Below are positions 57,248 to 59,009 of a stretch of 64,000 nucleotides of DNA, piece by piece (the stretch's first letter is position 1; every line of letters starts with the position of its first letter). A program made the position numbers and the translations under genes. The DNA is from Escherichia phage phT4A, in sequence record NC_055712.1, one strand, 5' to 3'. The notes beneath the pieces are model-generated. The model worked only from the letters and a program-made list of their open reading frames with translations, was not told where the DNA came from and did no database searches.

Positions 57248-58162
57248 TTATTTTGGTAATTTTTCGATTGTTGCTTTCAACTCATTGATTTTATTAAAGA
57301 GTTCATCGCTATATTTCATCAACTCACTACGGCGTTTTTCGGCCCACTTGATCAGGAATTCAGGAGAATCTACACCATACGTGTAACCTTCTGCACTCAG
57401 TTGAATACGAGCACGGGAACCATAATCAACAGAACTTTGTTCAATGAGAAACTTAACCGCATCAAGCAGGGCTAAATCTTCATGACTTACCATGATTCCT
57501 TCTGCCTTTGGAAGATCCACAACTTCATCCTGAATGAGTTCACGGCGGGTTGTTTCTTCCAGTGTTTCATGATTCTGGATCATCGTTTCGACCGGATCCT
57601 TTGCCACGGCTGGTTTGTTTTCACCTACTTCTTCCAAAAACATCAAAATCCATCCAGGAATTTTAGTCCGGAAAGAACTTTGTACTTCACTGGTGCATGA
57701 ATTTCCCAGAATGTGGATCGCGTTACCATGCATATCAGCTTTATTGATATAGATAACGTTCTGCTGTTCCTGTCGGTTGCTACCATAAGAAAGGAAGCGG
57801 CGTAACGATGTGTTATGACCATACTTCCCTAAATCGATTTCAGCCAGGCAATCAATGATCCCACGGTTAGAAACCTTGTAACGCTTACCCTGTTTGAAAA
57901 ATAACGATTCTTCCAGGTGAGTAGGGGTAAACTCTTCATAAAGAACATAGAATTCTTTAGGAATTTTGCGCTGAACCAGACTCAGTTTACAATTATTAGA
58001 AGGAACAATAACAGAGTGAATGTTTCCTTCGGTATCACACATAGCTTGCATTACTTGCGGATAGTAAAGATGGTCTTTCTTGCAAGTATAGCTATGGATA
58101 CGACTCTGACGTTTTTTGAAGTACCATTTACCAGTTTCAAAAGGCGCTGTTGTAAAATTCAT
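57248..58162 (-). CDS. hypothetical protein (304 aa), coupled to the DUF262 gene
   Basis: ATGA overlap with the DUF262 stop; no motif recognised. Confidence 0.65.
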   Translation of the reverse strand: MNFTTAPFETGKWYFKKRQSRIHSYTCKKDHLYYPQVMQAMCDTEGNIHSVIVPSNNCKLSLVQRKIPKEFYVLYEEFTPTHLEESLFFKQGKRYKVSNRGIIDCLAEIDLGKYGHNTSLRRFLSYGSNRQEQQNVIYINKADMHGNAIHILGNSCTSEVQSSFRTKIPGWILMFLEEVGENKPAVAKDPVETMIQNHETLEETTRRELIQDEVVDLPKAEGIMVSHEDLALLDAVKFLIEQSSVDYGSRARIQLSAEGYTYGVDSPEFLIKWAEKRRSELMKYSDELFNKINELKATIEKLPK

Positions 58163-58686
58163 TTTGCATTCTCATACATAGTTAAAATTGCTTGCATATG
58201 TTCCGGTGATTGTGGAACCCCTGCAAAGTTCACTTTCAAAAAGAAATTCAACCGATCTTTTATGTTGCACTCATCGAGTCCAAGCGCTGGCAATGAAATG
58301 TTTTCAAAAGCACGTTGTTCATGTCTTTCCATTTCACCCCAAAACAAACGGGAACCGTTAGGCATCGGTATTCCAATTTCATTGTTCCAGAATTTCATGA
58401 TAGTTGTCAAGCGTTGTTTTCCATCAATGACTTCTACCCATCGAGATTCGTTGAATTCACTATCAACCGCGATCGCAATGATACCGCAAGGAAACCCAGT
58501 AATCAAAGTCTTCATGAAAGCATCTTGCTCTTTCTGCTTCCACACGTAGGGCCGCTGATAGGACGGATTCAGATCCAGATCGTTGTTCTTGAACCAATGA
58601 ATGTAACTACCAACCATGATCGCATGATCGCGACTTTGGAAAGTTTTTAACTCACGAATACGGTTTCTTACAATTTCGTCTGTCAT
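58159..58686 (-). CDS. DUF262 (ParB-like/GmrS-type) domain protein without a nuclease partner domain
   Basis: PSYQRPYVWK and IDGKQRLTT motifs; start moved to ATG 58686. Confidence 0.75.
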   Translation of the reverse strand: MTDEIVRNRIRELKTFQSRDHAIMVGSYIHWFKNNDLDLNPSYQRPYVWKQKEQDAFMKTLITGFPCGIIAIAVDSEFNESRWVEVIDGKQRLTTIMKFWNNEIGIPMPNGSRLFWGEMERHEQRAFENISLPALGLDECNIKDRLNFFLKVNFAGVPQSPEHMQAILTMYENAK

Positions 58687-59009
58687 TATAAAATCACCAT
58701 CCAGTATATAATCGTAATCATAACCGCTACAGTGAAACACATTGCAGCATACACACGCGCATTATGAACCTGTGTTTTCAATTCTGCGATCTCTTGATCC
58801 TTTTCGCTTTCAAACTCTTCGCGAGTACCATAATACCCAGGATCGTTAGCAGTTGCCAATCTAACCGCATCTTTTTCAACCAGCGTTGCGTAACCGCTTT
58901 TTATTTGTGTCGCCCCGTACCATCCACCCCGATCGTTGTTAATGATCAGATGATCGCCTTTTTCGTTATGCTTTGATTCGCCAACAACAATAACCCGCTT
59001 ACCATTCAT
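58686..59009 (-). CDS. tail-anchored membrane protein (107 aa)
   Basis: C-terminal TM AAMCFTVAVMITIIYWMVIL; stop abuts the DUF262 start. Confidence 0.6.
   Translation of the reverse strand: MNGKRVIVVGESKHNEKGDHLIINNDRGGWYGATQIKSGYATLVEKDAVRLATANDPGYYGTREEFESEKDQEIAELKTQVHNARVYAAMCFTVAVMITIIYWMVIL

Follow-up and report, generated by a model that had tools for sequence, protein, structure and literature searches.

Results

Gene organization at the locus

We analyzed three overlapping genes, named orfA, orfB and orfC, on the minus strand of a 64,000-nucleotide stretch of Escherichia phage phT4A DNA (NC_055712.1; this whole stretch is called the window). The window belongs to a Slopekvirus of the KP15/KP27 type; more than 100 genomes of Klebsiella slopekviruses, among them KP15, KP27, Matisse and Miro, match the region at 98-99.8% identity. 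A preliminary description of the same DNA had placed three minus-strand open reading frames (ORFs) here, and both the ORF list and our reading of the sequence gave the same frames and coordinates:

58686..59009, minus strand: orfA, 107 amino acids (aa), tail-anchored membrane protein, phrog_7472
58159..58686, minus strand: orfB, 175 aa from its ATG, minimal ParB-DUF262 protein with a predicted nucleoside triphosphate (NTP)-binding domain
57248..58162, minus strand: orfC, 304 aa
57620..58162, minus strand: N-terminal domain of orfC (residues ~1-181), two predicted tandem small beta-barrel units, optional and fast-evolving
57491..57619, minus strand: linker of orfC (residues ~182-224), predicted to be disordered, variable in length
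57248..57490, minus strand: C-terminal module of orfC (C-module; residues ~225-304 and the stop codon), predicted helix, beta-hairpin and long helix

For orfB the ATG was taken as the start; the program-made ORF list reaches a GTG at 58740. As described before, orfB overlaps both of its neighbors: orfA and orfB share one nucleotide (TAATG), and orfB and orfC share four (ATGA).

orfB encodes a minimal DUF262 protein

The product of orfB matches Pfam family PF03235 (GmrSD_N) with E=9.4e-19 and 68.7 bits (cutoff 33.2). The DUF262 domain is defined by the three motifs QRxxxW, DGxQR and FxxxN (PMC12065111). In orfB, motif I is QRPYVW (residues 44-49), motif II is DGKQR (88-92) and motif III is F149xxxN153, followed by the family signature GVPQSxEH. 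The earlier assignment to DUF262, a ParB-like NTPase family, is borne out by the PF03235 match and by the presence of QRPYVW and DGKQRLTT. It would have been weakened by a loss of the conserved NTPase residues, but these are kept: in an alignment of 34 relatives reaching down to 24% identity, residues Q44, R45, W49, D88, G89, Q91, R92, T95, N153 and G156 are invariant, and all three defining motifs are invariant or nearly so. The nearest PDB entry to the family profile is BrxU (7p9k, E=1.2e-9), with motifs I-III all aligned.

The protein stops 22 residues past motif III. Of the 417 positions of phrog_1583 (E=1.4e-58) it covers no more than 3-178, and among the PADLOC models its residues 17-165 match positions 45-196 of 385 in NsnA (E=3e-18) and its residues 32-102 match positions 47-114 of 363 in PD-T4-2_A (E=1.7e-13). 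NsnA, DndB, GmrSD and SspE all carry an eight-helix DNA-binding domain, ParBDB, after DUF262 (PMC12065111). No ParBDB domain was found in orfB, where just those 22 residues are left and where the coverage of the phrog_1583 and NsnA models ends early. The DUF1524/HNH half is also missing, as had been stated, since the protein ends at residue 175. The view of orfB as half of a modification-dependent restriction enzyme therefore holds for the DUF262 domain without a nuclease, but with ParBDB gone as well, orfB is less than half of a GmrSD. Similarly, kinship with GmrSD-type enzymes agrees with the GmrSD_N match, although the closest defense relatives by PADLOC profile are NsnA (Menshen) and PD-T4-2_A.

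Judged by its sequence, orfB is a minimal ParB-DUF262 domain whose nucleotide pocket looks intact and which has neither ParBDB nor a nuclease. The conservation of residues suggests that it is probably an NTPase, binding ATP, GTP, UTP or CTP and hydrolyzing it via motif II. In the alignment, the nearly invariant GVPQSxEH after motif III sets a viral minimal DUF262 family apart, and orfB has the features of this family: a length of ~170-177 aa, an end just past motif III, the signature itself and a phage or prophage origin.

orfC contains no recognizable nuclease

The product of orfC gave no matches at all in Pfam, PADLOC or NCBIfam, and profile search, model and alignment revealed no PDB relative, no nuclease fold, no conserved His and no conserved catalytic residues. 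The lack of nuclease features noted previously in the 304-aa protein is thus confirmed, and nothing in the family, PDB or fold comparisons identifies orfC as a DUF1524-type nuclease, which would have turned the locus into an ordinary split GmrSD. Structure prediction, proposed in the preliminary description as a check on this point, yielded barrels and a helical module. In this AlphaFold2 model (14-sequence alignment, mean predicted local distance difference test (pLDDT) score 75.6), two tandem beta-alpha-beta-beta-beta-alpha-beta units are predicted at residues ~13-78 and ~94-178 (pLDDT 82-92). The linker has pLDDT <50 at 182-200 and 206-222, and its alignment columns are rich in indels. The C-module is modeled as a short helix (227-241), a beta-hairpin and a long helix (267-301), with D229, L232, L239, Y260 and R277 invariant. 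The family has very few members (4 clusters by indexed search; 17 matches among 1.84 billion representatives); its remote members, at 21-28% identity, have a common layout and motif set. One PHROG family, phrog_15764, matches residues 216-304 (E=1.7e-7). A 250-aa protein upstream of the DUF262 gene of Pectobacterium phage POP12 (POP12_099) resembled orfC by eye, but was rejected as a relative (hhalign probability 0.5%; E=0.22 and 0.94 with hidden Markov models (HMMs) of the N- and C-modules).

orfA is a tail-anchored membrane protein

As described before, orfA ends in a transmembrane anchor: residues 89-107 are hydrophobic (KD19 = 2.39) and follow a soluble N-terminal region of ~85 residues. 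It matches phrog_7472, a family of unknown function (E=3e-67), and has no PDB relative and no Pfam, PADLOC or NCBIfam match. In each of the 171 phage records that contain orfA, the DUF262 gene comes right after it. Homology of its N-terminal region to the orfC barrels was considered and discarded (hhalign probability 0.4%). Compared with the Roth22 copy (L001 3392..3724), orfA is 87.7% identical, with a synonymous divergence (dS) of 0.12 and a ratio of nonsynonymous to synonymous divergence (dN/dS) of 0.67, whereas the adjacent orfB and orfC are more than 99% identical. Among slopekviruses orfA is locally mosaic, which suggests a recombination patch limited to this gene.

The C-module of orfC is the conserved partner of orfB

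The gene product that is conserved next to the DUF262 protein is the C-module. It follows orfB in about 170 Slopekvirus and Pseudotevenvirus genomes and is also found in ~22%-identical relatives. RB16-type phages have, next after the DUF262 gene, a gene for a 102-aa protein (RB16p167) whose alignment with orfC covers residues ~215-304 and includes the LPK at the end, and this C-module-only form (101-104 aa, Pseudotevenvirus) is present in 63 phage records. Phages Lw1 and RB16 are nearly identical in orfA (99%) and orfB (98%), yet Lw1 has an orfC of 319 aa and RB16 the C-module only. This comparison of sequences indicates that the barrel domain was recently gained or lost. The earlier treatment of the 304-aa protein as the partner therefore applies to its conserved C-terminal ~90 residues, but not to the N-terminal 215 residues, which are optional and fast-evolving. 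The record counts tally: orfA has 171 records and orfB, within the two genera, ~171, and the orfC family adds up to 117 + 63 less the ~10 that are shared. Matches to the C-module HMM with E=1e-27 to 1e-34 lie beside DUF262 genes in loci L003, L007-L012, L096-L103, L114 and L115.

Three remote orfC relatives could be traced, in Yersinia phage JC221 and in two metagenomic T4-like contigs. Each lies just downstream of a 170-172-aa DUF262 gene, from which it is separated by a membrane-protein gene; an orfA homologue is present in one of these contigs, and orfA is missing in JC221. In the IMG/VR loci L114 and L115, an orfC-like ORF is also found beside the short DUF262 gene, and the start/stop overlaps are kept throughout the orfC-linked loci. 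The intervening gene (JC221, L008, L012) encodes a polytopic membrane protein of ~155 aa (phrog_944), which has tblastn matches in 1,127 phage records, those of T4-type phages and ICP1 among them; it was dropped as a specific partner, being a generic resident of the region. No relatives of orfA or orfC were detectable in Krischvirus, POP12, ST64B-like prophages or gut-phage contigs, and the association with orfB is therefore not an obligatory one.

Minimal DUF262 proteins are widespread in phages

A check of the distribution in related genomes, suggested in the preliminary description, showed that orfB is not peculiar to this phage. By tblastn, relatives are present in 298 phage records, and the homologues form 29 clusters of 167-177 aa in a widespread phage and prophage family. 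Carriers include Slopekvirus, Pseudotevenvirus (RB16, RB43, Lw1; phages of Cronobacter, Citrobacter and Enterobacter), Krischvirus (RB49-like, ~35% identity), POP12 and phages similar to Erwinia phage pEp_SNUABM_01. Further relatives occur in the temperate phage ST64B (sb33, 46%) and in Vibrio, Moraxella and other phages. In GenBank, members are labeled 'DUF262 domain-containing', 'ParB-like partition protein' (M26a), 'chromosome partitioning protein' (Phynn) or 'DefenseFinder protein'. The DUF262 ORF ends just past motif III in all 80 IMG/VR loci, and about half of them have an additional N-terminal extension. Many of the metagenomic phage proteins (P0030-P0036; L013, L015; L136-L175) are 244-295 aa long, with ~100-120 extra N-terminal residues that by eye look like a small beta-barrel (VGD.V...VLEV.D.G.YKV) and gave no Pfam match; if real, this extension would parallel the barrel domains of orfC. 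On one viral contig (L123), a minimal DUF262 gene (3495..4010, plus strand) is accompanied, at a distance of ~800 bp, by a minus-strand gene (4799..5860) for a full-length DUF262 protein of 353 aa.

In a scan of bacterial genomes, the short family was found in 4 of 80 loci, the rest being mostly ordinary long DUF262 proteins. These bacterial short forms lie only in prophage-like contexts and on one contaminating phage contig, and no recurrent partner gene was seen in the prophage neighborhoods. The contig in question comes from a Flagellimonas marina assembly (NZ_JBHSCL010000010.1, 178,077 bp, L016), encodes a short DUF262 protein 78% identical to orfB and is probably a contaminating enterobacterial phage genome.

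Among records named 'Escherichia', orfB matched 52, compared with 469 for the generic T4-like membrane protein, and T4-type phages with hydroxymethylcytosine (hmC) DNA are therefore evidently without the gene. The Straboviridae carriers that could be placed belong to Slopekvirus, Pseudotevenvirus and Krischvirus, and have no recognizable genes of the hmC pathway (PMC5219037; PMC13390438).

The cluster is under purifying selection but dispensable

In comparison with Lw1, dN/dS was 0.09 for orfB, 0.17 for orfA and 0.23 for orfC, which indicates that all three genes are maintained by purifying selection and that orfC evolves fastest. The same holds at greater distance, with orfB 73% and orfC 22% identical to their JC221 counterparts. 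A viable Slopekvirus isolate, Klebsiella phage KLB1 (PP444686.1, L176), has a deletion of ~6.5 kb corresponding to window positions ~52,400-58,875. It takes away orfB and orfC completely, orfA for the most part, and some dozen neighboring (downstream) early genes; on that host at least, the phage can therefore do without the cluster. The deletion junction is occupied by a stretch of ~850 bp (L176 ~4,123-4,976) that is only partly window-like (82% over 280 bp).

Transcription context and neighboring genes

Three further features were annotated around the cluster:

57216..57243, minus strand: intrinsic-terminator-like hairpin after orfC, 12-bp stem (12 pairs, 6 of them GC)
59018..59021, minus strand: GAGG ribosome-binding site before orfA, 3' of the next hairpin
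59024..59039, minus strand: C(UUCG)G-type hairpin between the upstream 85-aa gene and orfA, 6-bp stem, UUCG loop

A strong terminator thus closes the cluster 3' of orfC, and a sigma-70-like promoter for the next gene overlaps it. The hairpin upstream of orfA folds, but is not better than shuffled sequence (region z = -0.9) and was rejected as an operon boundary; besides it there is a weak promoter-like site. Because a terminator follows orfC while only this unremarkable hairpin and the weak site precede orfA, the three genes are probably the 3' end of a longer co-directional array of early genes starting near nudE and not a self-contained operon. The term operon used in the preliminary description is apt insofar as the genes are coupled by overlapping junctions and followed by a terminator, but no clear boundary or strong promoter lies upstream.

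The sequence TTGTTATATTACACACA directly follows the terminator hairpin (57201..57217, minus strand), where it looks like a terminator-promoter cassette (TTGCAT-17-TATATT). It is repeated exactly at 55356..55372, with a near copy at 54995..55011; with up to 3 mismatches, 4 matches were found and 0.42 expected.

The 85-aa gene upstream of orfA (59038..59295, minus strand) is called 'anti-CBASS protein acb1' in Roth phage records. Its matches are to three PHROG families of unknown function (134-157 aa) and cover no more than the C-terminal ~60 positions of these. In the KLB1 record, 'similar to acb1' is put on a different, 207-aa upstream gene, which the Roth22 record calls 'RNA ligase'. As a name for the 85-aa gene, Acb1 looks doubtful.

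Discussion

Comparison with known DUF262 and ParB systems

The gene anatomy, the conservation of the motifs, the lack of a nuclease and of ParBDB, the co-inheritance, the purifying selection and the dispensability of the cluster are solid observations, against which the known systems can be compared. GmrSD/BrxU enzymes (PDB 7p9k) share with orfB an N-terminal ParB-DUF262 domain with QRxxxW, DGxQR and FxxxN. BrxU has ~590 residues, however, and orfB, with 175, lacks the large DUF262 insertions, the helical ParBDB/middle domain and the DUF1524 His-Me nuclease; it is also phage-encoded, lies in an early-gene array and has its own GVPQSxEH signature after motif III. A split GmrSD-type type IV restriction enzyme, in which the DUF1524/HNH nuclease came from the 304-aa protein, would fit the GmrSD_N match and the RB16 record, which notes similarity to a 'DUF262 and HNH endonuclease domain protein'. 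The hallmark of GmrSD, a fused or adjacent DUF1524/His-Me nuclease, was not found in orfA, orfB or orfC, and at the sensitivity of the profile and fold searches this explanation is refuted; we give it hardly any credence.

NsnA (Menshen) and PD-T4-2_A are, like orfB, DUF262 proteins without a fused nuclease; they act via separate partner proteins. NsnA, however, always has ParBDB and works with the ABC ATPase NsnB and the nuclease effector NsnC (PMC12065111), none of which is present at the cluster. Downstream of orfB we looked for NsnB (AAA_15 + DUF3696) and NsnC (inPIN nuclease) and found orfC, which matches no PADLOC or Pfam model, and then the terminator; the annotated neighbors in related records are small hypothetical proteins. 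PD-T4-2 needs a full-length A protein of ~363 aa and a B partner, but orfB matches A only partially, and orfA and orfC match no PADLOC model. A closer precedent is the GmrS1/GmrSD2 doublet of E. coli ECOR17, in which a nuclease-less protein consisting of ParB_n (DUF262) only is the obligatory partner of an adjacently encoded protein (PMC12373910). That doublet is a bacterial defense system, and its second protein is a full GmrSD that includes an HNH nuclease; in the phage cluster the genes are viral and the partner is nuclease-less.

The CTPase switches ParB, Noc and KorB and sulfiredoxin belong to the same fold superfamily and have an arginine-rich-motif nucleotide pocket; they illustrate NTP-gated switches without a nuclease. 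Some GenBank annotations go further and treat orfB relatives as ParB-type proteins for partition or DNA segregation (M26a, Phynn), and DUF262 does fall within the ParB/Srx superfamily. ParB proteins carry GERRxRA where orfB has DGKQR, though, and membership is unsupported by Pfam: no ParBc or helix-turn-helix (HTH) match was obtained at E<=1, there is no dimerization domain and no annotated ParA-like neighbor (parS was not searched for), and the carrier is lytic. A partition function is thus extremely improbable.

A possible nuclease-free conflict module

In the literature searched, no function was found for phage DUF262-only proteins or for the orfA and orfC families. We tentatively propose that the cluster is a nuclease-free, NTP-gated accessory module, non-essential and expressed early, which serves non-hmC T4-like phages in phage-host or phage-phage conflict. 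The conserved engine would be orfB, a ParB/Srx-fold domain that binds and probably hydrolyzes an NTP. It may form a complex with the helical C-module of orfC, whose tandem beta-barrel domain, optional and fast-diverging, could act as a target-binding adaptor, while in most carriers tail-anchored orfA would bring the complex to the inner membrane. Instead of cleaving DNA, such a complex would bind or sequester its target in an NTP-gated way. Its arena could be counter-defense, either against DUF262-type sensing (Menshen/PD-T4-2-like) or against a pathway reached via the orfC adaptor. NTPase activity, physical complex, membrane recruitment, adaptor role and conflict function with its direction are what we infer from the observations listed above. 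Because of the early accessory status, the dispensability, the likeness to NsnA and PD-T4-2_A and the GmrS1/GmrSD2 precedent, we slightly favor counter-defense over exclusion of competing phages. The T4 proteins Ip1-Ip3, inhibitors of GmrSD, are likewise accessory proteins of T4-like phages, encoded in variable loci and dealing with DUF262-based immunity (PMC12373910). They differ in being packaged in the capsid and injected by hmC phages; orfA-orfC show no likeness to them in sequence or architecture, occur in genera without a recognizable hmC pathway and have no identified packaging signal.

Several points weigh against a simple sensor mimic. Across hosts, orfB is too conserved for a binder of fast-evolving defense proteins, and the bacterial genome scan gave no sign that it was recently captured from host genes. 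Moreover, Krischvirus SAP is still restricted by BrxU (PMC13390438), and since it has an intact member of the orfB family (H70; OZ034687.1 39787..40287), a general anti-GmrSD role is weakened.

Alternatively, the cluster could be an exclusion or defense system in which orfB senses the foreign (hmC or glucosyl-hmC) DNA of T-even-type competitors and signals via orfC to orfA in the membrane, so that the competitor is blocked or aborted. DUF262 domains are indeed the modification sensors of GmrSD, BrxU and SspE (PMC12065111), pharokka assigns the label 'DefenseFinder protein', the best PADLOC matches are to defense proteins (NsnA, PD-T4-2_A), and a membrane protein, orfA, is co-conserved. The Straboviridae carriers, having no recognizable hmC pathway, would compete with hmC phages on the same hosts, and in temperate phages the DUF262 gene lies among accessory genes near int. 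Yet orfB lacks ParBDB, which mediates DNA binding in every characterized DUF262 sensor (PMC12065111), and no toxic effector is recognizable. In addition, orfA is small, single-pass, tail-anchored and missing in JC221, and the polytopic membrane protein of the distant loci is generic. On balance we consider such a system rather unlikely. Still less probable, in our judgment, is that orfB acts alone as a small NTPase or nucleotide binder and that orfA and orfC are unrelated early genes kept beside it by T4-like synteny. Without orfA or orfC, orfB occurs in Krischvirus, POP12, prophages and many metagenomic phages; the whole region downstream of nudE is syntenic among these phages, and an unrelated generic membrane gene stands between orfB and orfC in distant loci. 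What argues for a true association is that orfC, although very rare, lies beside a short DUF262 gene on each of the five examined contigs with a divergent member (P0049, P0051, P0057, L114, L115), that the overlapping stop/start codons are conserved, and that the C-module is kept directly after orfB where the rest of orfC is lost.

A link to DNA methylation, with orfB working together with phage DNA methyltransferases or shielding methylated phage DNA from modification-dependent restriction, would have an analogy in the common ParB-domain/methyltransferase fusions. Two unrelated lineages point this way. Krischvirus kvi (L004 1496..3016) encodes a Dcm-like C5-methyltransferase and a Zn-ribbon protein, with the methyltransferase two genes upstream of the family member, and in five pEp_SNUABM_01-like loci (L104, L105, L122, L124, L125; ~147-kb Erwinia-type phages) the DUF262 gene is preceded, ~1 kb upstream, by one for an NPPY DNA methyltransferase (phrog_799, E=3e-75). 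Slopekviruses themselves encode Dcm and Dam, and their DNA is resistant to restriction, its modification status being unexplained (PMC5219037). However, the Dcm gene of the window is ~22 kb from the cluster (mapped from KP27 coordinates), no methyltransferase is adjacent in the Slopekvirus, Pseudotevenvirus, JC221 or ST64B-like contexts, and two of roughly eight lineages could be coincidence. The DNA of Krischvirus SAP reportedly contains hmC and glycosylated cytosines, although the phage has no known gene for a synthase or a glycosyltransferase, and that of TB34, at 99.96% identity, is unmodified (PMC13390438); this difference maps nowhere near the cluster. We therefore regard a methylation-linked role as quite improbable. 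Most of the differences listed between SAP and TB34 are either indels of one base in essential genes or C>T changes in Pro codons, a pattern that looks like sequencing noise. The pair was accordingly set aside as a genetic handle on the Dcm/Zn-ribbon/DUF262 cluster, as no listed variant is near it and most are noise-like.

Implications

DUF262 is the sensing and NTPase core of the anti-phage systems GmrSD/BrxU, SspE, DndB, Menshen, PD-T4-2 and Dazbog. What is new here is this known domain in a minimal, viral and nuclease-free format with novel partners. Possibly, a minimal viral DUF262 protein, an orfC-type adaptor and a membrane tether make up an unrecognized class of nuclease-free, NTP-gated conflict modules, which would act either as inhibitors capping or diverting the DUF262-based immunity of the host (Menshen, PD-T4-2, BrxU-like) or, in non-hmC T4-like phages, in superinfection exclusion against competitors with modified DNA. 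The KLB1 deletion and the domain difference between RB16 and Lw1 are ready-made natural comparisons. Hundreds of phages, lytic as well as temperate, carry a compact and strongly conserved DUF262 protein without nuclease and ParBDB, whose role would tell what the domain is capable of by itself. Slopekviruses are common candidates for phage therapy, and the function of orfB might reveal a new mechanism of counter-defense or exclusion that is relevant to phage therapy against Klebsiella.

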